From NCBI GenBank assembly GCA_022360135.1, contig JAKSDM010001206.1, positions 1 to 28,370 on the forward strand: a stretch of 28,370 bases of DNA, in the 5' to 3' direction. The position numbers and the translations under genes are program-made. Each line of letters opens with the position of its first letter. The stretch's first letter is position 1. Below the pieces are notes generated by a model. It saw only the letters and a list, made by a program, of their open reading frames with translations, was not told the DNA's origin and did not search any database. Positions 381 through 13,225 of the stretch are shown one piece after another. Source of the stretch: Pseudanabaenales cyanobacterium (GTDB lineage Bacteria > Cyanobacteriota > Cyanobacteriia > Phormidesmidales > Phormidesmidaceae).

Positions 381-2093
381 ATGTTGGGGCTAAGTGCAAT
401 GACCAACGTTCAAATGGAGCCACTACCCATCAAAACCTCCATTGCAAGGCGAGTGTTACTGATTTATCCCATCTTTCCGCCGTCGTTTTGGTCCTTTGAA
501 AATGTCTTAGCTCTGGTGGGCAAAAAAGCCTTACTGCCACCTTTGAATCTGATTACTGTGGCTGCTATTTTACCCCAAACTTGGGATTTCAAGCTGGTCG
601 ATCGCAACGTTAGAGACATCACGCAAGCCGAGTGGGCCTGGGCAGAATGTGTGATTATTTCTGGCATGATTGTGCAAAAGTCAGACCTCTTGGCCTGTGT
701 ACAAGAGGCAAAATGCCGAGGTAAGTTAGTAGCGGTGGGCGGTCCTTACGCCACAGCGCTCCCCCAAGAGGTGCAGGATGCTGGCGCGGACTATTTGGTT
801 TTAGATGAAGGGGAACTCACTCTCCCCCTATGGGTAAAGGCCTTAGAATGCGGTGAAACTCAGGGAATATTTCGAGCCGCCGAAAAACCGGATGTGACCC
901 AAACCCCGATTCCACGATTTGACCTCCTAGACCTCAAAGTCTACGATACTATGTCGGTTCAGTTCTCCAGAGGTTGCCCGTTCCAATGTGAATTTTGCGA
1001 TATTATCGTGCTCTATGGTCGCAAACCCCGCACCAAAACCCCTGCTCAACTCCTGGCTGAACTGGATACGCTCTACGATTTGGGATGGCGGGGCGCTGTG
1101 TTTATGGTGGACGATAACTTTATTGGCAATAAGCGCAATGTCAAATGTCTGCTCCGAGAACTCAAGATCTGGCAAGCTAAACGTGAACGCCCTTTTGGGT
1201 TTATCACAGAAGCCTCAGTCGATTTAGCCGATGATCCAGAGTTAATGGACTTGATGGCGGAGTGCAAATTCTACTGGGTATTTTTAGGGCTTGAAACCCC
1301 TGATGAATCGAGTCTCAGCCTCACCAAGAAGTTTCAAAATACGCGCAGTTCGATGCTGGAAGCCATTGATAAGATTTACCAGAAAGGAATCAGGGTGATA
1401 GCGGGGTTGATTATTGGCTTTGATGGGGAAAAAGCGGGTGCAGGTCAACGGATTGTCAATTTCATTGAAAAAGCTGCGATTCCAGCGACCACATTTAGTA
1501 TGTTACAGGCCCTGCCCGATACCGCGCTCTGGCATCGGCTAAAAGCAGAGGGGCGTTTGCTCAACCATACAGGGAATATCAACCAAACCACATTAATGAA
1601 CTTTGTCCCCACTCGTCCAATCGAAGAGATTGTCCAGGAATATTTAGACGCGATCGATCAGCTCTTTGACCCAGAACGTTACCTGGAGCGAGTTTATAAT
1701 CAATTTATGCGTCTGGCTCCCCTACCCCATCATCTCAATCCACCCAGGAAAAACCATCGGAGTATTAAGCCTAGGAAAAAAGAGCCAAATTTTAAGCCAT
1801 CCACATGGGTGCGATTGCGAGCATTTTTAACCGTTTGTTGGCGGCAGGGGATTAAGCAGCGTAGCCGCCGAAAATTTTGGGGTTACTTATTCTCAATTTG
1901 GAAATATAAACCCTACCGCCTGTCTTCCTATATCTCCACCTGCGCCTATAGTGAACATTTCCTGACATACTATCCAATCGTACGATCTCAACTGATGGAT
2001 CAGTTAACTGAGCATCTACAAGCCACCGCTCACTTGCAAACCAATCAACTTGAAGTAAATCCCAAGGAAACTAAACTCTCAGCAGCCGGATAA
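381..2093 (+). CDS. B12-binding radical SAM protein (class B methyltransferase-like; HpnP-related/DUF4070-type paralog)
   Basis: CxxxCxxC (CPFQCEFC), N-terminal cobalamin-binding region (PPLNL...VAVGGPY), MVDDNFIGN. Start uncertain (ATG 381, 399 or 414). Confidence 0.85.
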   Translation: MLGLSAMTNVQMEPLPIKTSIARRVLLIYPIFPPSFWSFENVLALVGKKALLPPLNLITVAAILPQTWDFKLVDRNVRDITQAEWAWAECVIISGMIVQKSDLLACVQEAKCRGKLVAVGGPYATALPQEVQDAGADYLVLDEGELTLPLWVKALECGETQGIFRAAEKPDVTQTPIPRFDLLDLKVYDTMSVQFSRGCPFQCEFCDIIVLYGRKPRTKTPAQLLAELDTLYDLGWRGAVFMVDDNFIGNKRNVKCLLRELKIWQAKRERPFGFITEASVDLADDPELMDLMAECKFYWVFLGLETPDESSLSLTKKFQNTRSSMLEAIDKIYQKGIRVIAGLIIGFDGEKAGAGQRIVNFIEKAAIPATTFSMLQALPDTALWHRLKAEGRLLNHTGNINQTTLMNFVPTRPIEEIVQEYLDAIDQLFDPERYLERVYNQFMRLAPLPHHLNPPRKNHRSIKPRKKEPNFKPSTWVRLRAFLTVCWRQGIKQRSRRKFWGYLFSIWKYKPYRLSSYISTCAYSEHFLTYYPIVRSQLMDQLTEHLQATAHLQTNQLEVNPKETKLSAAG

Positions 2094-2174: not shown

Positions 2175-3977
2175 TTGCAAAATCCACAAGCCAATTCATG
2201 GTCAACGTTGGTCGAATTATTGCAATTTAGAACAGTGGCTCAACCGCACCAAGATTTATACATTTTTCTCAAAGATGACAATGTTGAATCGGGTTGTTTA
2301 ACCTATGCAACTTTGGATCGAAAAGCGCGGGCGATCGCCGCTTACCTGCAAACCCAGTCTGTCCAACCAGGTCAACGGGTTTTATTGAGCTATCCCCTGA
2401 CAGAAGGGCTAGCCTTTATTGCCGCTTTCTTCGGTTGTCTCTACGCCGGGGCTGTTGTAGTCACGGCATGGCCTCCCATGAACCAATCCCTATCCTCTGA
2501 GTTGCAGTATAAAGCAGCTGACGCAGCGGTCAGTTTGGGGCTGACCGCTCAAACCTTGCTGGCGCAAATTCAAACTACTTTTGGCCAGAATCCAGAACTC
2601 GCCCATATTCCCTGGTTAGCCACAGAGCCCTTTTCCTTAGACCTGGCAGAGGACTGGCAAGCCCCTGAGTTAGCCTCCCATACCCTAGCGTACCTTCAAT
2701 ACACTGCAGGCTCAACAGGTATTCCGAAGGGGGCCATGATTAGCCACAAAAACTTGCTCCACAATTCAGCCGTCATTGCCCATTGCTTTGGCGCAACGCG
2801 TGACGATCGAGGAGTGATTTGGTTACCGCTATATCACGATATGGGATTAATTGGCGGGATTCTCCAGCCGCTCTATGCCAGCTTTCCTGTCTGTTTAATG
2901 TCGCCGCTATCATTCATGCGTCGGCCACTACGGTGGTTACAAGCAATCTCCCATTACCGGGCGACGATCAGTGGCGGGCCGAATTTCGCCTATGAGTTGT
3001 GTATAGATAAAATCAAATCGGCTGACTTAAAAAGGCTGGATTTGAGTACCTGGACGATCGCCTTCAATGGTGCAGAACCCGTTCAAGCAAGAACTCTAGA
3101 ACGGTTTGCAGCGGCTTTTGCTCCTTACCAATTTCGGCCTGAGGCTTTTTGCCCTTGTTATGGCATGGCTGAAACCACGGTGATGGCGGCCAGTAATCTG
3201 AAATTACAAACTCCTCAAGTTCTCTACTTAGATCCAGATGCGTTGGCTCAAAATCAAGTGCGCCAGATCAAGGAGGAACAAGTAGCGGGTCTCAGGGTCG
3301 AAAATCGCTCCGCAGTGAGTTGTGGTCAGGCTGTTTTAGGTCAACAAATTCGCATTGTTGATCCAGAAACTTGCCAACCTTGCTCAGTAGATCAAGTGGG
3401 AGAAATTTGGATCGCAGGGGATAGCGTCGCCCAAGGTTACTGGAATAATGCTGAAGCAACGGCGGCCACATTTCAGGGCTGTTTAGCGAACACGGGTGAA
3501 GGTACCTTTTTACGGACGGGTGACATAGGCTTTTTAGCCTCTGAACAGCTTTACATCACAGGAAGGCTTAAGGAAGTCATCATTATCTGGGGACGTAACC
3601 TTTACCCCCAGCATTTAGAACAGGCGATCGCCCAAAGCCATCCAGCGTTTGCTTTTAGCCAAGGGGCCGCCTTTAGTCTGGAGCAAGACGGTCAGGAGCA
3701 ATTAGTAATTGTGCAGGAAATCTCGCGGCGATCGCAGCATAGCGCCCCCCTCACTGACTTAGTTGCAATCATACAAACCACGATCAGCCAACAATTTCTG
3801 GTGGAACCCCAACAGATTGCGCTGGTAAAATCTGGCTCAATTCCAAAAACCCCAACAGGGAAGGTACAACGCATCCACTGTCGCCAACAATGGCGAAATG
3901 GACAATTGCCTGTGATTCACACCTGGCGGCAAACAATTAGTGGTGGAAACATTGATTGGGAGGCAGCATTGGCATGA
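2175..3977 (+). CDS. Fatty acyl-AMP ligase (FAAL), stand-alone
   Basis: YLQYTAGSTGIPKG, WLPLYHDMGLIGG, SGGPNFAY, FNGAEPV, CYGMAE, RTGD, GRNLYPQ, PKTPTGKVQR; FAAL-type insertion near QVLYLDPDAL. TTG start with AGGAG at 2161-2165. Confidence 0.9.
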   Translation: MQNPQANSWSTLVELLQFRTVAQPHQDLYIFLKDDNVESGCLTYATLDRKARAIAAYLQTQSVQPGQRVLLSYPLTEGLAFIAAFFGCLYAGAVVVTAWPPMNQSLSSELQYKAADAAVSLGLTAQTLLAQIQTTFGQNPELAHIPWLATEPFSLDLAEDWQAPELASHTLAYLQYTAGSTGIPKGAMISHKNLLHNSAVIAHCFGATRDDRGVIWLPLYHDMGLIGGILQPLYASFPVCLMSPLSFMRRPLRWLQAISHYRATISGGPNFAYELCIDKIKSADLKRLDLSTWTIAFNGAEPVQARTLERFAAAFAPYQFRPEAFCPCYGMAETTVMAASNLKLQTPQVLYLDPDALAQNQVRQIKEEQVAGLRVENRSAVSCGQAVLGQQIRIVDPETCQPCSVDQVGEIWIAGDSVAQGYWNNAEATAATFQGCLANTGEGTFLRTGDIGFLASEQLYITGRLKEVIIIWGRNLYPQHLEQAIAQSHPAFAFSQGAAFSLEQDGQEQLVIVQEISRRSQHSAPLTDLVAIIQTTISQQFLVEPQQIALVKSGSIPKTPTGKVQRIHCRQQWRNGQLPVIHTWRQTISGGNIDWEAALA

Positions 3978-4112
3978 TTGCTTGATTACAGTCTACGTTG
4001 TTCTGCCTGGATGTATTGTGGATATTTCAAAGCACTGATTAAATTTTATGTCAACAAATTAAAACTGTATAGATATCTTATTACTGGGTAGTAGAGCGCA
4101 TCCGAAAAGCTC

Positions 4113-4670
4113 TTATTTTACCCCTAATCTTTTACGTAACCAGGTTGATCCCATGAATAGAAGCGGTGTCATCCAAAGACCATTGAGTATTAAATGAAGT
4201 GGAAGTCTGAAGTAGACGTATAGCGTTAGCAAAACACCATAGGGTGAATCCATATGGTCAATCCAATAAAAAACAGGATTGCTTTCATCCCCAGGTGAGA
4301 TCTTAAGACGGCGTTTAATAAACGAGTTAGGTAGTTCAGATAGGTTAAAAATAAAACCAATGAGTAAGCCATAGAGAATTCCATTAAAGCTACTTAGAAG
4401 AATAATGTTTTTAAGGTTAAATTTTAGACCAATTTCCAACATCTGGAATATCCAAACACTGACCAAATGAGTTAGAGGTAAACTTACCAGACCCCGCCAT
4501 TTTTTGTTGACCCCAAATAGTCCTACATGGATGGGATAGCTGAGCCTGTTAAATAGGGCTGTCTTCCACAAAAGAGCTTCAAAGATACTGGCCAGTAAAA
4601 GAGGAAGTCCTAGCCACACTAGACTTAAAAAGTCATTCTTATATAGATCAAGTGGACTCATTATACTCAT
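4113..4670 (-). CDS. CDP-archaeol synthase (CarS)-like membrane cytidylyltransferase
   Basis: Small hydrophobic protein with ELPNSFIKRRLKISPG...IDHMDS, matching the CarS/CTP_transf_1-type SFIKRRL...G...D-Q/H-x-D signature. Confidence 0.75.
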   Translation of the reverse strand: MSIMSPLDLYKNDFLSLVWLGLPLLLASIFEALLWKTALFNRLSYPIHVGLFGVNKKWRGLVSLPLTHLVSVWIFQMLEIGLKFNLKNIILLSSFNGILYGLLIGFIFNLSELPNSFIKRRLKISPGDESNPVFYWIDHMDSPYGVLLTLYVYFRLPLHLILNGLWMTPLLFMGSTWLRKRLGVK

Positions 4671-4712
4671 GATTTAGATCTTTTTATAACTGCTAAAAGT
4701 TGAAACAATGAT

Positions 4713-5750
4713 ATGCTGCTCAAATCGAAACAATCCAATACCATCGTGACTGATTCTCAAATGAGTGAGTCACGTCTTATGATTGCTCTGATTAACCCTA
4801 AAAGTGGCCAAGGTAAAGCCAGACGAGATTTGAATGTTGTTTTACCCATTTTTGAGAAGAGTAACATCCATCTGCGCGTTGCTGAAATTCAGGGTTCCCA
4901 AATTGTTTGTCAGGGGGTTCGACAATCCTTTCTGAACTTTTTCCAGTCATTAGATCTGGCTACAATTCATGGCATTATTGTGGGCGGAGGAGACGGAACA
5001 GTTCACTCAACAGTAAATGCCTTGATGAGTCGAGCAGATTGGACACAGGCGATTAAAATTCCTATTGGTTTTTTACCCAGCGGCACCGATAATGGTTTGT
5101 GTAAGACGGTTCTAGAACTTTCAGGAGAACCCTATAGTTTGAAGCATGCGGCCCTTCTCATTGCTCAAGGGCGGTTGCGATCGCTTGATATATTCAAAAT
5201 CCATCAGGAGAAACGTACGTTCTACGGCGTACATTCTCTGGCTTGGGGCTTAGTCAGCGACATTGACATCGAATCCAACCACCTCAGATTTCTGGGGCCG
5301 TTCAAAGAATGGATTTATGGATTGGCCTATGTTTTAAGACGTAGATTTTATGCGGGTACGTTACTGTTTGACCCTCAGTTTTCGCTGCAGGCTAAGTCAC
5401 CCATCTTGAGCAACAAACAAACAGATACATTTATTGGCATCTGGGCAGTTAATGTTCCCTGGGCAGGACGAGACCGCCTTTCTACTCCATTCGCCAAACT
5501 CGATGATGGTTTGATCGATTTACTCGTTCTGCGCCAAGGCATTTCAAGAAGGCATCTTTTAGAGCTTTTTATTAAAACAGAAGATGGTTCTCATATTCAT
5601 TGTCCAAAGCTTGAATACTATAAAACCCAAGCTTTAGCATTAAACCCTATCAGCATACCTGGCACTATCGCTATTGATGGTGAAGCGGTTGATTATGGCC
5701 CTATCAGCATTGAGGTTTTACAGAAACTCTGCACCATTTTTTGCCGTTAA
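4713..5750 (+). CDS. Diacylglycerol-kinase-superfamily lipid kinase with eukaryotic sphingosine-kinase-type motifs
   Basis: LINPKSGQGKA (C1), GGGDGTVHSTVNALMSRADW (C2), LPSGTDNGL (C3), SLAWGLVSDIDIESNHLRFLG (C4), DDGLIDL and IAIDGE (C5). Start may be ATG 4761. Confidence 0.85.
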   Translation: MLLKSKQSNTIVTDSQMSESRLMIALINPKSGQGKARRDLNVVLPIFEKSNIHLRVAEIQGSQIVCQGVRQSFLNFFQSLDLATIHGIIVGGGDGTVHSTVNALMSRADWTQAIKIPIGFLPSGTDNGLCKTVLELSGEPYSLKHAALLIAQGRLRSLDIFKIHQEKRTFYGVHSLAWGLVSDIDIESNHLRFLGPFKEWIYGLAYVLRRRFYAGTLLFDPQFSLQAKSPILSNKQTDTFIGIWAVNVPWAGRDRLSTPFAKLDDGLIDLLVLRQGISRRHLLELFIKTEDGSHIHCPKLEYYKTQALALNPISIPGTIAIDGEAVDYGPISIEVLQKLCTIFCR

Positions 5751-5751
5751 T

Positions 5752-6414
5752 TTACTGTTTTACAGTGTCGGTAAAAAGCTGACGCTGTTGTAAATCGATA
5801 GCCGCGATACAAACAGCAGATGCATATAGTTGAATAACATTAGTGATTTGTTTAAGTAGATAGATGGGAAAAATGCTCCATAGCAAGATCTGTCCGGTAT
5901 GGATTAAATCAAGCGGCAGATTAGGCGCGTAATAGTTTAAATACAGCAGTATATAGAACAGCTCATTGCCAAAAATTAAGGCGTCCATAAATCGTTTGTC
6001 GCCGTAATAAAGGTTGAGGAGCCGGTTTTTAGACCAGCGTTTGGTATTTTTATGGTTATGTTCCGCTTGTATAGAGGTTGCCTGTAAAAGATAGTAGTGA
6101 CTGCTGACATCTAGCGCTATGAGCAGAATGAAAATAAGTAGGTATTCTGGATAGAGTTGGGCAAGGATGAAACATAAACCTGTTGTTGCAGCTCGATCAG
6201 TCACCATATCAAGGGTAGCTCCAAACTGGGTTCTCTGATTAAGTCGTTTTGCTGCTTGACCATCGAGTTCATCGAGTAAGAAGGCCATAAGATAAAAAAT
6301 CAAACACCATAACCCATGTCCAAATGTATGAGAAATAAAGCTAATTGCATAAAGAACAACTCTTAAATAGCCAATGATATTGGGTAGCAATAGAAAAATA
6401 TTATTGGACTTCAT
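5752..6414 (-). CDS. CDP-alcohol phosphatidyltransferase, eukaryotic phosphatidylinositol synthase (PIS/CDIPT)-like
   Basis: CDP-alcohol motif DELDGQAAKRLNQRTQFGATLDMVTD, plus PIS-type segments NIFLLLPNIIGYLR, LDVSSHY, HK...N.LL..YY and GNELFYILLYL. Confidence 0.85.
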   Translation of the reverse strand: MKSNNIFLLLPNIIGYLRVVLYAISFISHTFGHGLWCLIFYLMAFLLDELDGQAAKRLNQRTQFGATLDMVTDRAATTGLCFILAQLYPEYLLIFILLIALDVSSHYYLLQATSIQAEHNHKNTKRWSKNRLLNLYYGDKRFMDALIFGNELFYILLYLNYYAPNLPLDLIHTGQILLWSIFPIYLLKQITNVIQLYASAVCIAAIDLQQRQLFTDTVKQ

Positions 6415-6526
6415 ACTCTATATTGTGGATTTGGATAAAGATTGCGACCAGCTTTGATCTTTAGTTACTTAAAGCCATTTTTTTTCTACGGTTACCTAGT
6501 TATTTCTTTCGTAAACCAGTAGGTCT

Positions 6527-7813
6527 TCATAGCCTTATTAAATCATGCGATCGCTGACAAACTGTCTCAAAGAGTTTCTCATACTCGCGTGTAATTTTGA
6601 CGGCATCAAAATCCTGGGCTCTGATTAACGCATTGCGGGCAAGTCTCGCCGCTTGATCAGGATTAGAAATCAGCTGATGAATGGCCCCTGCCAATTTCTC
6701 TGGGCTGCGGATCGGGACTAATAATCCTATTTGATCATCCTCAATGATTTCCTTAGGTCCATAGTCACAGTCTGTGGCAATGACAGGCGTCTGGCAGGCC
6801 ATTGCTTCAACCACAACATGTGGAAAGCCTTCCCATAAGGATGACAGGACAAAAGCCTGAGCTGCCGTCATATATATCCATGGATTCTCAACAAAGCCAG
6901 CTAACTTAACGTATTCCTGAAGCTTTAAAGTTTGGATTTGTACTTCTAAAGTATCTCGGTAATTGCCTTCCCCTAAAATTAGCAGCTTTAAATCCCTGAG
7001 ATGATACTGATGATGACAAAGGTATAAGGCTTGGATCAGATATTCAAATCCTTTTTGTGGGTATAACCGCCCAACAGCCACAATATAACGATCATCGGAG
7101 ACTTGCAGATTGGGTTCAGGCTTATATTTAGAGGATTGAACAGCCTGCTGAATCTGTACAAGATTGGTGGGATTATAAATATAGGTGATCTTCCCTGGAT
7201 TAATTTTATATACTTCTGAAACTTCTCTCGAAATACCCTTAGAAACTGTCAGGATTTTATCTGCTTGACTGTAACTATTCTGAATAATTCTGAATATCAA
7301 CATTTTCAGTATTCGATTCTTGGTAATACTTTTGAGATTAGTTGGAAAGCTATTTCCTTCACGCGCAATCCATTGGACTTTTCGGCTTCCTTGCTGACCT
7401 AAGGCAAAATTTGTCAGAATATTTAAACCTGTCATACTGGTCATGACGATGTCTGGCTGAATTGCCCTGACTAAAGCTTGAATTTGGTAAATTGAGGCTG
7501 GAGTTCGTAACAATCTCGGCAAGAGGCTTTTCAGACTGAAAGAATGAATTGTACTAGGCAAGGCTAAAACATATTGTAACCAGTCAGGTAATTTAGCCGT
7601 TCTGATATCTGCTACAGTCACCAAGTTGAGATATTCGCCAGTTTGGGATAAAAGACCAAGATAAGGGATAAAGCGATCGCGATCGATATACTCTAATAGG
7701 TCAACAATAGTACGCTCAGCTCCCCCACCTGATAAATCTGGCAGGATAAACAGGACTGAAATTTTCTTGGCGTCAGCTAAAGTTTGTTTCTTCACCACTT
7801 TATTGTTATCCAT
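6527..7813 (-). CDS. Glycosyltransferase family 4 (GT-B fold)
   Basis: PDLSGGGAER N-terminal motif, AVGRLYPQKG, FVLSSLWEGFPHVVVEAMAC (Ex7E). Start reassigned to ATG 7813, which overlaps the upstream stop (ATGGATAA); ORF track starts at 7870. Confidence 0.9.
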   Translation of the reverse strand: MDNNKVVKKQTLADAKKISVLFILPDLSGGGAERTIVDLLEYIDRDRFIPYLGLLSQTGEYLNLVTVADIRTAKLPDWLQYVLALPSTIHSFSLKSLLPRLLRTPASIYQIQALVRAIQPDIVMTSMTGLNILTNFALGQQGSRKVQWIAREGNSFPTNLKSITKNRILKMLIFRIIQNSYSQADKILTVSKGISREVSEVYKINPGKITYIYNPTNLVQIQQAVQSSKYKPEPNLQVSDDRYIVAVGRLYPQKGFEYLIQALYLCHHQYHLRDLKLLILGEGNYRDTLEVQIQTLKLQEYVKLAGFVENPWIYMTAAQAFVLSSLWEGFPHVVVEAMACQTPVIATDCDYGPKEIIEDDQIGLLVPIRSPEKLAGAIHQLISNPDQAARLARNALIRAQDFDAVKITREYEKLFETVCQRSHDLIRL

Positions 7814-8633
7814 ATTTCTCATAGCCAAAGAACTCCAGAGCAGGACTTGCTTCACGATTAAATTCATCAATCATTTCATCTGATAGTCTATCTATCTGCC
7901 TTTGATTCACATTTGGCTCTAGTATCTGATTTATGCTCTCCCTATCAAACCAATACTTCCGCCGCTCTTTTCCGAAAATAACTCTGTGTTCCCCTTGTTC
8001 AGTAATTACCTTTTTTGATTTAAATCGAAGCTTTTCTAGTTGGCGAGGACAAACATCTAAGAAGGTAGATAAATCCTCGATAACCTCGAAAGGGTTTTGA
8101 AGAATGTCCTCAAATTTGATCATTTTGAATCTGAGAATAACATCAGCATATCTTTTCATCTCTTCTGAAATCTGATAATACAATTGACCTACTCTGGCTG
8201 CAGTTCTCCCTCTTCTGAGATATCCATCGACTAATGCATAGCCATTTCGAGTAAGTGCTATGAAATACAAATCCGGATACACTTTGAGTAAGAGATCGGT
8301 GAGAAAAATATCTCTATTTACAGATTTGAGGCAGAGTGCTGTATTTGCAATCTGTTCGTGGGTATAGAGTTCTCCCTCAGCAATGAATCTGTCATCAGGA
8401 TGTTTAAGACTCAGTAATTTAAACCTAAACAATTGATTGTCTATGATTCGCTGGTAATCAATGATTTGTTCAGCAAGCAAGCGACAAAACCATAGCGCCC
8501 AAGACCTATAGAATAGTTCTCCAGTCTCGTATATTGGTGAGCAAATTTCAGGATGTGATTGCAATAAATTCCATGCAATATTTGTGCCTCCTCTTGCAAA
8601 ACCACTTATGACGATGACCTTGGTATTCAGCAC
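7806..8633 (-). CDS. Sulfotransferase-family protein (divergent)
   Basis: N-terminal GFARGGTNIAWNLLQSHPEI resembles the 5'-PSB loop (GxxRSGT..L..LL..HP); FIALTRN and IKFEDILQNP match later sulfotransferase segments. GTG start with GGAGGA 9 nt upstream. Confidence 0.7.
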   Translation of the reverse strand: MLNTKVIVISGFARGGTNIAWNLLQSHPEICSPIYETGELFYRSWALWFCRLLAEQIIDYQRIIDNQLFRFKLLSLKHPDDRFIAEGELYTHEQIANTALCLKSVNRDIFLTDLLLKVYPDLYFIALTRNGYALVDGYLRRGRTAARVGQLYYQISEEMKRYADVILRFKMIKFEDILQNPFEVIEDLSTFLDVCPRQLEKLRFKSKKVITEQGEHRVIFGKERRKYWFDRESINQILEPNVNQRQIDRLSDEMIDEFNREASPALEFFGYEKYG

Positions 8634-8956
8634 AGTCGTTATTCCTCCATCAACCGGCCTTGAGGTCAGCGGTGTGAGACAGCGTGAGATTGCTTTCCAA
8701 CGGAGTCAGACACTTTGCTTACACGTCTACTATTCTCAAACCCATGTTAGCCTGGTTACCGCCTAAACCATCAAGAAACTGGCAACTCAGATTTAATCCT
8801 TCGCCATGGATTAAGTGACTTAGGAGACTCAATGGTATCATTGCTGAAGCTGAAGTTAAATAGTGCAACCTGTCGGGAATACTAAGGGCCAGGTATCTGC
8901 AACATAGCTATCCCCTCTCACCTAGTTTCAACTCTTAGATAAGTGCAAGCGGTGAT

Positions 8957-10129
8957 ATGAGCGTGCGACTATTTTCCAGAATCCCCTTAGCATGGCTACA
9001 ACTAACCAGAAATAAGGTCCGTCTCTTAGTCGCTTTGATGGGGATTACCTTTGCAGTTGTGCTCATTTTCATTCAACTTGCCTTTTTGGACTCCCTATAT
9101 GAGAGTCAGACAGCCTTACACAGAAGTCTCAAGGCTGACCTGGTATTGATTAATCCTGAAATGAAGACGTTAGCAAGTAAAAGAAATTTTTCTCGTCAAC
9201 ATTTATATCGCGCTTTAAATTTTGACCAGGTAGCATCGGTTAACTATCTCTATCATGGTCAACAGACCTTTAAATACAAGGGCAGTGCTGGTGGTAAAGG
9301 AATCATTATTGTGGGAGTTAATCCAGAAGCACCACCCTTTGAAATCCCTAATTTTGATCAGCTGGCGCCTCAGCTTAGAACGACAGGTACAGTTTTATTT
9401 GATCAGAATTCTGATCTTAAGGAATATGGCAACATTGTCGAAGATTTGCAATCCGGTAAGCCGATAACTGCAGAGGTCGGAGATCGAAAAGTTTGGATTG
9501 GTGGAGCCGTTGACTTTGCAGGCGCTTCATTTGCAGACGATGGAAACTTGATTGCCAGCAGCGCAACTTTTTTGCAAATTATACCTCATCGTAATGCAGA
9601 TGATATAACCATTGGTTTGATCACGCTAAAACCGGATGTTGACAAACAAAAATTTCTGAATGGAATGGCGGCTCAGTTACCGGAAAATGTTCAAGTAATG
9701 ACGCTTCAAGACTTTATCGATCTTGAAAAACATTACTGGTCTACGAGTGCGCCAATTGGATTCGTTTTTGGTATGGGTGTCCTCGTCGGTTTTCTGGTGG
9801 GGGTAATCATTGTTTATCAAATTCTTTACAACGAAGTTTCTGACCATTTGCCAGATTATGCAGTCCTGAAAGCAAGAGGCTATAAGCATCGTTACTTTTT
9901 AGGGATTCTTTTCCAGGAAGCTTTACTTCTAGCGATCCTGGGTTATATTCCTGGATTCGCCATCTCTTTAGGACTTTATGATGTGACTAAAGACGCCACC
10001 GCTCTCCCCATTCATATGACGTTTCAAAGAGCATCACTGGTGCTTTTACTCACCATTATGATGTGCTTCATGTCCGGCGCTATTAGTATGCGTAAATTGC
10101 GGGAGGCAGATCCAGCAGAACTTTTCTAA
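8957..10129 (+). CDS. devC: DevC-family ABC exporter permease (FtsX-like)
   Basis: RIPLAWLQL...RLLVAL.GI.FAVVLIF.QL, IGFVFGMG, YQILYNEVSDHLPDYAVLKARGY, LREADPAELF. Confidence 0.9.
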   Translation: MSVRLFSRIPLAWLQLTRNKVRLLVALMGITFAVVLIFIQLAFLDSLYESQTALHRSLKADLVLINPEMKTLASKRNFSRQHLYRALNFDQVASVNYLYHGQQTFKYKGSAGGKGIIIVGVNPEAPPFEIPNFDQLAPQLRTTGTVLFDQNSDLKEYGNIVEDLQSGKPITAEVGDRKVWIGGAVDFAGASFADDGNLIASSATFLQIIPHRNADDITIGLITLKPDVDKQKFLNGMAAQLPENVQVMTLQDFIDLEKHYWSTSAPIGFVFGMGVLVGFLVGVIIVYQILYNEVSDHLPDYAVLKARGYKHRYFLGILFQEALLLAILGYIPGFAISLGLYDVTKDATALPIHMTFQRASLVLLLTIMMCFMSGAISMRKLREADPAELF

Positions 10130-10140
10130 ATTTATTTTTT

Positions 10141-10273
10141 GTCACTTGTCACTTGTCACTTGTCACTTGTCACTTGTCACTTGTCACTTGTCACTTGTCA
10201 CTTGTCACTTGTCACTTGTTACTTGTTACTTGTTATCTGACCAATGACCAATGACCAATGACTCATGACTTAT
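10141..10273 (+). repeat. STRR-type heptamer array, bipartite
   Basis: 19 in-phase heptamers: 11x GTCACTT, 2x GTTACTT, GTTATCT, 3x GACCAAT, GACTCAT, GACTTAT. GACCAAT is a rotation of the reverse complement of STRR2 TTGGTCA. Confidence 0.95.
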
Positions 10274-10334
10274 GTCCCTGCTAGTTCGATAACGATCTAA
10301 GTTAATACCTTCTTTGAGCACACTTCATAATACT

Positions 10335-11876
10335 ATGACGGCTCAATCTATTGTTTCAGTTCAGAATCTAAATCACTTTTTTGGAGAAAATACACTCCGA
10401 AAACAAGTTTTATTCGATGTCAATCTTGAGATTCGCCCTAAAGAATTTGTCATCCTGACTGGGCCTTCCGGTTCGGGTAAAAGTACCTTGTTGAGCCTGA
10501 TTGGTTGCTTGCGCTCAGTTCAAACCGGAAGTCTTAAGGTCTTGGGTCAAGAGCTTAATGGGGCTAATAATAGCCAGTTAATCCAGGTCCGTCGTCACTT
10601 TGGCTTTATTACCCAATCCAGTAACCTACTTCATTTTCTGACGGCCCAGCAAAATGTACAGATGTCGCTAGAATTACATCCGGAACTTTCGGGGCAAGAT
10701 AGGCGTACAAAGGCAAAAGCCATTTTGGAAGCAGTTGGATTGGGCGATCGCATTGCCTACTATCCTGATAGCCTATCAGGTGGACAGCGCCAAAGGGTGG
10801 CGATCGCCAGCGCCCTAGTCACCAATCCCAAATTGATGCTGGCCGATGAACCCACCGCTGCTTTAGATCGAAAGTCAGGCCGGAACGTGGTCGCCTTGAT
10901 GCATCGATTGGCAAAGGAGCAGGGAAGCGCTGTCTTGATGGTTACCCACGATAATCGCATCCTTGATCTCGCCGATCGGATCATCAACGTTGAAGACGGC
11001 AAGCTGGGATTAGCCGTTAGTCAAGAACTCTCTATTGCATTACCAGGCTTTAACGCCGCCCTGCTTGAGAAAAGCGATACAAAACCGACCGTCCTCACCT
11101 ATGAAGCTGGCGAGATTATCGTGCGACAAGGTGAAACCGCTACTAAGTTCTATGTCATTCTCGAAGGTGAGGTGGAGATTCTTCAAGAAACCCCTGATCA
11201 ACCCGCCAAACTTCTAAGACGGATGGGGCGGGGAGAATATTTTGGTGAAATTGGTTTGCTGCAAGGAGGTGAACGCACAGCCACAGTTCGCGTCGCCAAA
11301 GATTCAGAAGTCAAAGTTATGGTGATTGAGGAAACGCTTTTTCGACTTCTGATCGCCGATTCTGACCTCACCAATACCGATGTGGCTCGCCGCCTGCATC
11401 AGCGCATCATGACCAGTCACCTGGCGATCGCCTTGCCGAACCTGAGCACAGCTCGCATCACCGAGATTTTAGCTGCGGTGGAGGTGGTTCGATACGGGCC
11501 AAATTCCAATATTGTGCAACAAGGTGAGTCCGCCGATCGGTTTTACTTGATTTCTAAGGGCCAGGTCGCCGTAATTAACCATCAGGACGATGGCCAGGAA
11601 GCCACTCTCCGCACAATGCAAGCGGGTGAATACTTTGGTGAGACCGAGCTAATGAACAGACAAGACTATGGCTTTACGATTCGAGTGCTTCCTGAAGCCA
11701 GTGTTGAAGTCATGGTGTTAGACCGGACAACCTTCTGTAGCCTGATCGTTGAGTCCAATGCCAGCCAAGACAAAGTCGCCACAGTCTTGCGTAACCGCCT
11801 CATCGGCAATACCGAATATCCCTCTGAATCTATCTCCCTCAATCAAAACGCCCTTAAATCACGTTCCTCTCCCTAA
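10335..11876 (+). CDS. devA: DevA-family ABC ATPase fused to two C-terminal cNMP-binding domains
   Basis: Walker A GPSGSGKS, LSGGQRQRV, Walker B LMLADEPT, MVTHD; then GEYFGEIGLLQGGERTATVR and GEYFGETELMNRQDYGFTIR. ATG 10335 preferred over TTG 10314. Confidence 0.9.
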   Translation: MTAQSIVSVQNLNHFFGENTLRKQVLFDVNLEIRPKEFVILTGPSGSGKSTLLSLIGCLRSVQTGSLKVLGQELNGANNSQLIQVRRHFGFITQSSNLLHFLTAQQNVQMSLELHPELSGQDRRTKAKAILEAVGLGDRIAYYPDSLSGGQRQRVAIASALVTNPKLMLADEPTAALDRKSGRNVVALMHRLAKEQGSAVLMVTHDNRILDLADRIINVEDGKLGLAVSQELSIALPGFNAALLEKSDTKPTVLTYEAGEIIVRQGETATKFYVILEGEVEILQETPDQPAKLLRRMGRGEYFGEIGLLQGGERTATVRVAKDSEVKVMVIEETLFRLLIADSDLTNTDVARRLHQRIMTSHLAIALPNLSTARITEILAAVEVVRYGPNSNIVQQGESADRFYLISKGQVAVINHQDDGQEATLRTMQAGEYFGETELMNRQDYGFTIRVLPEASVEVMVLDRTTFCSLIVESNASQDKVATVLRNRLIGNTEYPSESISLNQNALKSRSSP

Positions 11877-11989
11877 ATTTGGGATGTTGGCTGCGAGATT
11901 GGGAATTCTGTAATTTAACATTACCTATTCAACTCAACTACGTTTCCCCTATTGAGCATCGCCGCCTTACAGCCTCGGAGTGAGGATGT

Positions 11990-13225
11990 ATGACGAATAC
12001 CTTGGACATTCAGTGTGTCATCGCTAAGACAATTGTTGATATGGAAATCAGACAATCTCGATTCAAATCCAAAACATGGATGACTATCCTGCTCCTGGCG
12101 GCTGGTGTCCTGACTGCGAATACGCTTTTGCCCACGGGTTTCTTCAAGGTTCGGGAAACTCAACGGAATGTTGTTTCGGAGGTTTCTGCTAGCGAGCCTA
12201 CCCTGACCACGGTAACGGCGCTAGGACGATTAGAACCTCAAGGAGAAATCACTCGTCTATCTGCATCTAGCTCTAATCAGCGTTTGGCTCAAGTGTTGGT
12301 GGGTGAAGGGGATATCGTTCAAGCTGGGCAAGCGATTGCTGTTCTCGACAATATCGATATTCGGAAAGCGGCTCTAGAGGAGGCGCAAGCAAAAGTAAAA
12401 GCTGCTCACGCCCATCTGACTCAGGTCAGCGCCGGGGCCAAGATGGGCGCCATTAATGCTCAACAAAGCAAAATAGTCATGTTAGAGGCTCAATTGGTTG
12501 GGGATATCGAGGCTCAGAAAGCGACTATTGCTCGTCTAGAGGCAGAAGTGCGCAATGCTGAAGTAGACTATCAACGCCATCAGAATCTTTATGATTCAGG
12601 GGCGATTTCAGCCTCTCTGTTTGACACCAAGCGCACCCAAATGGAAACCTTGCGGGAACAGCTTCGAGAAGCAACCGTGACCTTAGAACGAACTGTTAAC
12701 ACGGGTCAAGCCCAAGTTCAAGCTGAAAAAGAAACTCTACAGAGCATTGCTGAAGTTCGCTCAGTTGACATAGCCGAAGCCCAAGCCCAAGTGGATGAAG
12801 CATTGGCGTTAGTGAGCAAAGCAGAGGCAGACTTGGAACTTGCCTATGTGCGATCGCCTGTGGATGGACAAATTTTGAACCTTCACGCCAAAGCGGGTGA
12901 AATTGTGGGCGGCCAGGGCTTTGCTGACATCGGTCAAACTCAACAGATGTATGTCGTGGCTGAAATCTACGAAACCGATATTCGCCATGTGCAGATTGGC
13001 CAAACAGCTGCCATTATTAGTGAATACGGTGGGTTTACGGGCGAACTCAGGGGGGTTGTGAACCAAATTGGCCTGCAAATTGACAAACCTGGCATTTCTA
13101 ATGATGATCCAGCTGCTAAGGCGGATGTCAGGGTGGTGGAAGTCAAAATTCGCCTCAATTCAGAAGACAGTGAGCGAGTCAGACATCTCAATAACCTACA
13201 AGTTCGGGCATCCATTGAAATCTGA
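11990..13225 (+). CDS. devB: DevB-family HlyD-type membrane fusion protein
   Basis: VTALGRLEPQGE, long coiled coil, VRSPVDGQIL, QMYVVAEIYETDI, RVVEVKIRL...NNLQV. GAGGA upstream of ATG 11990 (alternative start 12041). Confidence 0.9.
   Translation: MTNTLDIQCVIAKTIVDMEIRQSRFKSKTWMTILLLAAGVLTANTLLPTGFFKVRETQRNVVSEVSASEPTLTTVTALGRLEPQGEITRLSASSSNQRLAQVLVGEGDIVQAGQAIAVLDNIDIRKAALEEAQAKVKAAHAHLTQVSAGAKMGAINAQQSKIVMLEAQLVGDIEAQKATIARLEAEVRNAEVDYQRHQNLYDSGAISASLFDTKRTQMETLREQLREATVTLERTVNTGQAQVQAEKETLQSIAEVRSVDIAEAQAQVDEALALVSKAEADLELAYVRSPVDGQILNLHAKAGEIVGGQGFADIGQTQQMYVVAEIYETDIRHVQIGQTAAIISEYGGFTGELRGVVNQIGLQIDKPGISNDDPAAKADVRVVEVKIRLNSEDSERVRHLNNLQVRASIEI

Follow-up and report, generated by a model that had tools for sequence, protein, structure and literature searches.

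A sphingosine kinase family member in a cyanobacterium, paired with a CarS-like cytidylyltransferase gene and probably serving lipid biosynthesis

Sphingosine kinase (SPHK) is chiefly familiar from eukaryotes, in which it serves signalling and catabolism. Cyanobacteria are considered to be essentially free of sphingolipids: reports describe just two such lipids from them, and Nostoc punctiforme makes none (PMC8895605). In the literature that we searched, we found nothing on cyanobacterial sphingolipid genes. What, then, would a kinase of the SPHK type do in a cyanobacterium? This question is raised by a gene on contig JAKSDM010001206.1 of assembly GCA_022360135.1 from a Pseudanabaenales cyanobacterium; the whole stretch analysed, positions 1 to 28,370 of this contig, is referred to here as the window. 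We report that this gene encodes a true member of the sphingosine kinase family in a bacterium and that the protein is probably active. The family itself is not new; what is new is its likely biosynthetic use and the pathway that surrounds it. The gene and its motifs are as follows.

4713..5750, plus strand: SPHK-family lipid kinase of 345 aa with an ATG start and the domains DAGK_cat and YegS_C
4794..4820, plus strand: C1 motif NPKSGQGKA, residues 28-36
4983..4997, plus strand: C2 motif GGGDG, from residue 91 onward, with the D94 codon at 4992-4994
5082..5093, plus strand: C3 motif GTDN, from residue 124 onward (GSGN in SPHK1)
5235..5297, plus strand: C4 motif SLAWGLVSDIDIESNHLRFLG, with SLAWG at 175 and DIDIES at 183
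5676..5684, plus strand: C5 motif DGE, residues 322-324

The open reading frame (ORF) is intact and has exactly the extent given for it in a preliminary description of this DNA, which was made from the sequence alone. The Pfam domains DAGK_cat and YegS_C cover residues 24-163 (E 5e-21) and 243-342 (E 1.5e-10), respectively. In-frame alternative starts are available at M17 (4761) and M23 (4779), and residues 1-16 are disordered in the AlphaFold2 model described below. A Kyte-Doolittle scan of the kinase detected no hydrophobic segment (maximal 19-residue mean of 1.2).

The closest relative of the kinase among all PDB sequences, as determined using HMMER, is human SPHK1 (3vzb; E 3.4e-30, 108.7 bits), followed by mitochondrial acylglycerol kinase (AGK; 4.4e-16), DgkB (2.9e-8), BmrU-like kinases (~1e-7), and YegS (8.8e-4); the match to SPHK1 is far beyond chance. 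All NCBIfam models for bacterial lipid kinases scored far under their cut-offs (at best 74.5 bits versus 313; for TIGR00147, 62.6 bits versus 118.65). An AlphaFold2 model built on a 54-sequence alignment of eukaryotic kinases and the bacterial clade to which the kinase belongs (see below) had a pLDDT of 92.8 and a pTM of 0.90. In Foldseek searches with this model, all SPHK1 chains ranked on top with template modeling (TM) scores of 0.81-0.84 and E values of ~1e-36 to 1e-32 (3e-36 for the match at 0.84), while AGK, DgkB, and YegS reached TM scores of 0.71, 0.65, and 0.63, respectively. By profile score, the eukaryotic SPHKs and the bacterial clade are mutual best matches. Specifically, the window kinase scored 313-329 bits with eukaryotic SPHK profiles, 192 bits with the profile of a marine group of ~300-aa kinases, and 76 bits with that of YegS-type proteins; the median scores of the clade members were 340-365, 195, and 64 bits, respectively. 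Conversely, named eukaryotic kinases scored 327 bits with the profile of the bacterial clade and 176 bits with that of the marine group.

The five motifs point in the same direction. In a HMMER alignment with human SPHK1, the segment VNALMSRADW of the kinase aligned residue for residue with VNGLMERPDW, and its C4 segment aligned in the same manner with the human segment that opens with SLAWGF and includes ADVDLES, as had been proposed. In this alignment, D94, S175, D183, and D185 stand opposite SPHK1 D81 (the catalytic base), S168, D176, and D178, respectively, and the claim that equivalents of D81, S168, and D178 are present was borne out. These SPHK1 residue numbers follow the numbering of the human SGDG and ADVDLES motifs. 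Asp81 and Asp178 of SPHK1 are described as the two aspartates that hydrogen bond with the amino-alcohol head of the ligands (PMC8560647). G93-D94-G95 and D185 are invariant in the 54-sequence alignment, and R107, D109, W178, D183, S188, R192, and D322-G323-E324 are conserved in at least 90% of the sequences. DgkB, YegS, and BmrU share DAGK_cat, YegS_C, and the GGDG and DGE motifs with the window kinase, but are without RxDW and WG..D.D..S and matched it with E values of only 3e-8 to 9e-4 and TM scores of 0.63-0.65; in agreement with the suggestion that RxDW and AWG..D.D.ES are atypical of bacterial DgkB/YegS kinases, aligned YegS-type sequences have neither segment and are without the D178 position. 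The single deviation that had been noted, GTDN for GSGN in C3, is genuine. The Asp is confined to the six closest homologues, while GTGN or GTSN is found in the rest of the cyanobacterial clade and GTGN also in the SPHK1 of spinach; compared with GSGN, the Gly, the Asn, and a hydroxyl residue are retained in the GTDN loop. A regular expression for the CxxxCxxC motif of ceramide kinase (CERK) had no match in the kinase, in which Cys occurs only at positions 66, 130, 297, 340, and 344.

A phmmer search of 1.84 billion representative sequences returned ~30 bacterial clusters on top (36-59% identity), which are cyanobacterial based on their names and gene contexts (Waterburya metagenome-assembled genomes, contigs with phycobilisome genes). 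The next matches were eukaryotic sphingosine kinases with E values of 1e-49 to 1e-33, including those of scallop, oyster, Mesostigma, millipede, spinach, Nematostella, Lotharella, and Stenamoeba. Of 400 other cyanobacterial species genomes sampled, only 4 contain the kinase gene, and these belong to three families; neither of the two genomes sampled from the family of the window's source has it. Relatives are also present in Pleurocapsa sp. PCC 7319 (43% identity; G401, C7:723363-724334) and in the purple sulfur gammaproteobacterium Thiorhodovibrio winogradskyi (37% identity). The kinase thus belongs to a small and patchy bacterial clade. We rejected the possibility of eukaryotic contamination because the window carries DevBCA, CHASE2 cyclase, and ArsR/P-type ATPase genes and because homologues occur in four 99%-complete cyanobacterial genomes, in one of them beside phycobilisome genes. 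The marine bacterial SPHK-like group (P0014-P0057; locus L008) is abundant, with clusters of up to 280 members in Tara/ENA data, and its ~300-aa proteins keep GGDG, GSGN, and DGE but have a Gly at the D178 position; based on this missing D178 equivalent, unrelated neighbouring genes, and lower profile scores, we ruled these proteins out as orthologues. Separately, SPHK-like proteins P0113/P0229 and P0173 are encoded on gene-dense metagenomic contigs (L014 and L015) in non-diagnostic contexts and may represent additional non-eukaryotic or compact-eukaryote lineages.

Is the gene of eukaryotic descent? We inferred a maximum likelihood (ML) tree of 79 rows using LG+C20, with PDB and AFDB rankings and profile scores standing in for the named CERK, AGK, LCB4, DgkB, YegS, CpgB, and PG1348. 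In this tree, the bacterial clade had a support of 100/91 and lay within a group with the eukaryotic kinases supported at 99/95, while the marine group and the YegS-type proteins were placed outside this group; nesting among ordinary bacterial diacylglycerol (DAG) kinases was not seen. The free ML search nested the bacterial clade among the eukaryotes, and its support values should be treated cautiously: a tree constrained to monophyly of the named eukaryotes was 9.8 lnL better than the free-search tree. In approximately unbiased (AU) tests, we rejected neither a single clade of the named eukaryotes (p 0.67), nor a clade of cyanobacteria and plants (p 0.46), nor one of cyanobacteria and the marine 300-aa group (p 0.48). 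Because none of the three placements was rejected, we make no claim as to donor or recipient of the kinase gene, and because the deep order of the tree is not robust, the family assignment rests on the other evidence, including the profile scores. Within these limits, the earlier suggestion of a eukaryote-related origin holds in that eukaryotic SPHKs are the nearest relatives after the bacterial clusters, in agreement with the profile scores.

The similarity to the eukaryotic enzymes extends beyond the catalytic core. Most clade members are 420-500 aa in length and have a conserved N-terminal domain of ~110 aa (including P0004, P0005, P0007-P0012, and P0073-P0088). Five of six of these domains had sub-threshold matches to the Pfam pleckstrin homology (PH) domain (E 5e-4 to 0.25), and in a structural model of P0010 (pLDDT 87.6), the N-terminal domain is a beta-sandwich capped by a C-terminal helix. 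Residues 1-438 of this model aligned with Arabidopsis SPHK2/SPHK1 with a TM score of 0.84 and also with the SPHK2 proteins of mouse and human, with SgkA/B of Dictyostelium, and with ceramide kinases (TM score 0.81); in the fold search, SPHKs (E 1e-43 to 1e-39) ranked above CERKs (1e-36). In a search of a small database, a hidden Markov model of the bacterial N-terminal domain matched the N-termini of eukaryotic family members with E values of 1e-11 to 5e-4. The whole two-domain architecture is therefore common to the bacterial clade and the eukaryotes. The window kinase itself aligns only from approximately residue 20 of the core, and its ORF starts 42 bp from the start of the CarS-like gene; along with P0002, P0003, and P0006, it has lost the PH-like domain.

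The kinase gene is located between the CarS-like gene and a phosphatidylinositol synthase (PIS)-like gene in a row that otherwise reads as follows.

381..2093, plus strand: B12-binding radical SAM protein with DUF4070
2175..3977, plus strand: stand-alone fatty acyl-AMP ligase (FAAL); a second FAAL accompanies the cluster in related loci
4113..4670, minus strand: CarS-like membrane cytidylyltransferase, divergent from the kinase across 42 bp
5752..6414, minus strand: CDP-alcohol phosphatidyltransferase of the eukaryotic PI-synthase type, convergent with the kinase
6527..7870, minus strand: GT4 glycosyltransferase; a GT4 recurs beside the kinase or CarS-like gene in related loci
7806..8633, minus strand: sulfotransferase-family protein
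8957..13225, plus strand: DevC / ABC ATPase with two cyclic-nucleotide (cNMP)-binding domains / HlyD-type exporter

The closest clusters to the CarS-like protein are bacterial CarS-like ones; the PIS-like protein is nearest to clusters of eukaryotic CDP-DAG-inositol 3-phosphatidyltransferase (CDIPT; feature score 0.97); searches of PDB sequences with these two proteins gave no matches. The stop codons of the convergent kinase and PIS-like genes are 1 bp apart (5748-5754) with no terminator-like site between them, and the two transcripts would therefore overlap. A scan of 4000-6600 for promoters and terminators yielded fewer sites than in shuffled sequences and is hence uninformative.

Several of these neighbours travel with the kinase. 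A divergent, adjacent kinase/CarS-like pair is present not only in the window but also in L001, L006, L007, G298, and T. winogradskyi, with kinase identities of 37-59%. Locus L001 (59% identity) encodes MIPS (inositol-phosphate synthase), desaturases, a KASIII-like protein, a 526-aa oxoamine synthase (AOS), and a Lipid_DES/FA_desaturase protein (DEGS-like), followed by a short-chain dehydrogenase/reductase (SDR), a FAAL, the CarS-like protein, the kinase, and a GT4. L005 has genes for a PIS-like protein, an AOS fused to an acyl carrier protein (ACP-AOS), a FAAL, the kinase, a GT4, and an ABC exporter; L006 has those for the radical SAM-DUF4070 protein, CarS-like protein, kinase, and PIS-like protein. 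On contig C170 of G298, we identified the kinase, CarS-like protein, GT4, Stealth, LicD, SDR, a FAAL-ACP-AOS fusion, a FAAL, and MIPS, and on contig C276 of G364 a FAAL, FA_hydroxylase, a second FAAL, an ACAD-like protein, ACP, AOS, SDR, the CarS-like protein, and an MBOAT. In T. winogradskyi (L047; CP121472.1, 1-10567), the pair (37% identity for the kinase and 61% for the CarS-like protein) lies with a highly reducing polyketide synthase (PKS), a DevBCA-like exporter, a PlsC-type acyltransferase, and an SDR.

In the genome of the window, the genes expected for a long-chain base are on a separate contig, C1805, as a MIPS-FAAL-(ACP-AOS)-SDR-MOP flippase row (L004, 9965-17175). The closest PDB sequences to this AOS are serine palmitoyltransferases (SPT; 1.5e-69; human SPTLC2, 1.6e-63). 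In the same 400 genomes in which we counted the kinase gene, those with strong matches to the CarS-like protein (57-60% identity) were precisely the four kinase carriers, and in three cases the match was on another contig. Each of the four also has an orthologue of the ACP-AOS (56-66% identity), for which a genome of the same family without the kinase had only a 39% paralogue, and, by Pfam, MIPS, which is rare otherwise (6/401). The PIS-like gene was found in three of the four carriers and in none of the other sampled genomes. The carrier genomes are mutually related and, therefore, these counts are not independent events. Nevertheless, the co-occurrence, the changing order of the genes, and the fact that a gammaproteobacterium also has the pair speak for a single functional module. 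Genes for sphingolipid-type tailoring also occur in the related clusters, i.e., the DEGS-like Lipid_DES desaturase in L001 and the FA_hydroxylase in G364. In the genome of the window, a Pfam search for Lipid_DES gave no match, but the control search was likewise empty, so this is no evidence of absence; tblastn with the L001 desaturase and KASIII-like protein gave no match either. This genome also encodes homologues of the GNAT from PCC 7319 and the FA-hydroxylase from G364, but these are on short contigs among housekeeping genes and hence uninformative.

What would the kinase phosphorylate, and to what end? A long-chain amino-alcohol is supported as the putative substrate by the conserved aspartates and by the co-occurrence of FAAL/ACP-AOS/SDR, the DEGS-like desaturase, and the hydroxylase. 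In eukaryotes, the product of sphingosine kinase is a signal or a catabolic exit. Because the window kinase is bacterial and encoded among biosynthetic genes, its product is probably a pathway intermediate and not a signal, and the probable role of the kinase is a biosynthetic step that feeds the CarS-like cytidylyltransferase. We propose the following substrate, order of steps, CDP-lipid intermediate, and final product. FAAL, the SPT-like AOS with its fused ACP, and SDR encoded on C1805 would make a sphingoid base. The kinase, as a soluble ATP-dependent enzyme, would phosphorylate the C1 hydroxyl of this sphingoid-type 2-amino-1,3-diol, with D94 as the likely catalytic base and D185 together with S175 holding the amino-alcohol head, in the roles that D81, D178, and S168 play in human SPHK1. 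The archaeal prototype of CarS uses CTP on a lipid phosphate monoester; similarly, the CarS-like enzyme and CTP could convert the lipid 1-phosphate to a CDP-activated sphingoid lipid. The PIS-like enzyme would then transfer the phospholipid to inositol supplied via MIPS, the head group may be decorated by the GT4 and the sulfotransferase, and the Dev-type pump would export the finished lipid. We judge the chances that the protein is a long-chain-base kinase whose product enters a pathway via a CDP-sphingoid to an inositol-phosphosphingolipid to be slightly better than even. More tentatively, and with a confidence that stays short of even, we suggest that it catalyzes the entry step of an undescribed route in which a base or a ceramide is phosphorylated, converted to a CDP-sphingoid lipid by the CarS-like enzyme, and joined to inositol by the PIS homologue.

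Several observations weigh against this pathway. The kinase block and the long-chain-base genes are on different contigs of a fragmented assembly (1,838 contigs), and they differ in the GC content at third codon positions (GC3; 0.34-0.40 versus 0.50-0.56). The AOS on C1805 is nearly as close to KBL and BioF (1e-60) as to SPT, and the kinase-bearing genome G364 gave no PIS-like match. The window kinase itself has GTDN in C3 instead of GSGN and is without the N-terminal PH-like domain carried by most of its relatives. No N-acyltransferase is consistently linked, the GNAT, MBOAT, and PlsC-type candidates differing between genomes, and on this basis, a free base and a ceramide are not distinguishable. 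CDP-ceramide, CDP-sphingosine, and related CDP-activated sphingoid lipids were not found in the literature searched and have no precedent there. Finally, the location of the Thiorhodovibrio pair beside a highly reducing PKS raises the possibility that the lipid alcohol is not a classical sphingoid base in every case.

Alternative substrates can be weighed against the same evidence. The kinase could act on the N-acylated base, forming ceramide-1-phosphate from which the CarS-like enzyme would make CDP-ceramide for an inositol-phosphoceramide-like membrane lipid. A DEGS-like desaturase is encoded in L001, and in eukaryotes the substrate of DEGS is dihydroceramide; moreover, the two FAALs of the window plus C1805, of G298, and of G364 could supply two chains, and GNAT, MBOAT, and PlsC-type acyltransferases are encoded near the cluster in some genomes. 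These genes favour a ceramide, as do the CERK-like arrangement of the relatives, whose PH-like N-terminal domain is as in CERK and whose model aligns end to end with CERK (TM score 0.81), and the precedent of Caulobacter CpgB for a biosynthetic ceramide kinase in bacteria. A free base is favoured by the invariant Asp equivalent to D178, which binds the free amine, and by the missing CxxxCxxC motif, and it would also agree with the higher ranking of SPHKs (E 1e-43 to 1e-39) than of CERKs (1e-36) in the fold search and with the lack of a consistently linked acyltransferase. We therefore regard a ceramide kinase as unlikely, although less so than the other alternatives. A kinase for a long-chain alcohol or diol without an amine, such as a PKS- or FAAL-derived polyol like the aglycone of heterocyst glycolipids, would owe its SPHK likeness to shared ancestry only. 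The Dev-type exporter of Anabaena exports a single-chain glycolipid, an exporter of this type is encoded in the window, and the Thiorhodovibrio PKS ends in ER-KR-ACP and is likewise accompanied by a DevBCA-like exporter. Yet, every cyanobacterial carrier tested has an orthologue of the ACP-AOS, which introduces the amine, the amine-binding Asp is conserved, and even the Thiorhodovibrio SDR is orthologous to the SDR that follows the AOS (48-52% identity); this substrate is therefore very improbable.

We consider it just as improbable that the enzyme is a DAG or monoacylglycerol kinase that provides phosphatidate for a private route via CDP-DAG and PI to a glycosylated, PIM-like PI. Pfam and NCBIfam name only DAG/lipid-kinase families for the protein, AGK is its second-best PDB relative, and the CarS-like protein, PIS, and GT4 would be sufficient to make PI-glycosides from phosphatidate. 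However, all NCBIfam models of bacterial lipid kinases are far under cut-off, e.g., 74.5 versus 313 bits, the similarity to DgkB/YegS is at least 20 orders of magnitude weaker than that to SPHK1, and the co-occurrence with the AOS/SDR module would be left unexplained. Moreover, a private kinase/CarS-like pair would be redundant in bacteria that make phosphatidylglycerol, because these have phosphatidate and a CdsA-type CDP-DAG synthase in any case. The least probable alternative, to which we give hardly any weight, is a salvage, detoxification, or signalling kinase that acts independently of its neighbours, in the manner of sphingosine-1-phosphate and its lyase, on sphingoid bases from eukaryotic neighbours or hosts. 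Eukaryotic SPHKs work in this way, and the patchy distribution and the low GC3 of a six-gene block including the kinase fit a recently acquired accessory trait, but such a function is difficult to reconcile with the conservation of the CarS-like pairing across two phyla at 37 to 59% identity and the strict co-occurrence with biosynthetic genes.

Compared with known systems, our preferred reading of a long-chain-base kinase in biosynthesis combines familiar elements in a distinct manner. The eukaryotic SPHKs (human SPHK1, 3VZB/3VZD/4L02/4V24; Arabidopsis SPHK1/SPHK2) share the two-domain fold (TM score 0.84) and the C1-C5 motifs, and the catalytic Asp and the Asp and Ser that hold the amino-alcohol are also kept in the window kinase; the latter differs in its low identity (26-39%), the GTDN in C3, and in having neither the N-terminal domain nor the long insertions of the eukaryotic enzymes. 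CERK resembles most clade members in its PH and DAGK_cat architecture (TM score 0.81), while the window kinase is without the PH domain, lacks the CxxxCxxC motif that is essential in CERK (10.1101/2023.05.01.538943), and is closer to SPHKs in fold ranking. In bacteria, Porphyromonas gingivalis dhSphK1 (PG1348) is likewise a kinase of the DAGK_cat family that acts on a long-chain base; it is a dihydrosphingosine kinase that was modelled on SPHK1 and in which the D81 equivalent is conserved (PMC9045371), but it is reported as a separate bacterial clade, and no CarS-like or PIS partner is described. Caulobacter crescentus CpgB is a ceramide kinase, the phosphorylated product of which is a biosynthetic intermediate for a sphingolipid with an anionic head group (JBC 2023; 10.1101/2023.05.01.538943), and it represents a distinct, purely bacterial clade. 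The published tree separates both PG1348 and CpgB from CERK-like cyanobacterial proteins. In Caulobacter, in which CpgD makes CDP-glycerate, and in the route proposed for Prevotella, it is the head group that is CDP-activated, whereas it would be the lipid in the pathway proposed here; a transfer from PI of the AUR1 type also differs from the proposed CDP-sphingoid route.

If correct, the proposed pathway predicts a new class of inositol phosphosphingolipids in cyanobacteria and purple sulfur bacteria as well as a CDP-activated sphingoid intermediate, which was not found in the literature searched. The module would join two typically eukaryotic enzymes, an SPHK with a PH-like domain and a PIS, and would be explained either by a double transfer from eukaryotes to bacteria or by a bacterial source of the eukaryotic SPHK and PIS; in either case, it would provide a bacterial comparison point for the origin of these two enzymes. 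Because cultured carriers exist (Pleurocapsa sp. PCC 7319 and T. winogradskyi), these predictions are directly testable.

The six consecutive genes that begin with the CarS-like gene and end with DevC (4113-10129) have a GC3 of 0.34-0.40, as opposed to 0.44-0.52 in the flanks and a genome GC content of 0.494, while the long-chain-base genes on C1805 (0.50-0.56) have a native composition; this difference suggests that the block was acquired separately. A copy of the radical SAM/DUF4070 protein with 58% identity adjoins the CarS-like gene and the kinase in L006 (410-2023). The radical SAM/DUF4070 protein is probably part of the module and perhaps has a role in modification of the lipid tail. The accessory genes of the clusters vary, with genes for Stealth and LicD phosphotransferase-like proteins in G298 (L040, 1938-4604), for FA_hydroxylase, ACAD-like, and MBOAT proteins in G364 (L042, 2272-2802 and 12154-13722), and, in Pleurocapsa PCC 7319, for a small GNAT located between those for the FAAL and the CarS-like protein (L046, 9500-9985). 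These differences suggest that head groups and acylation vary between species.

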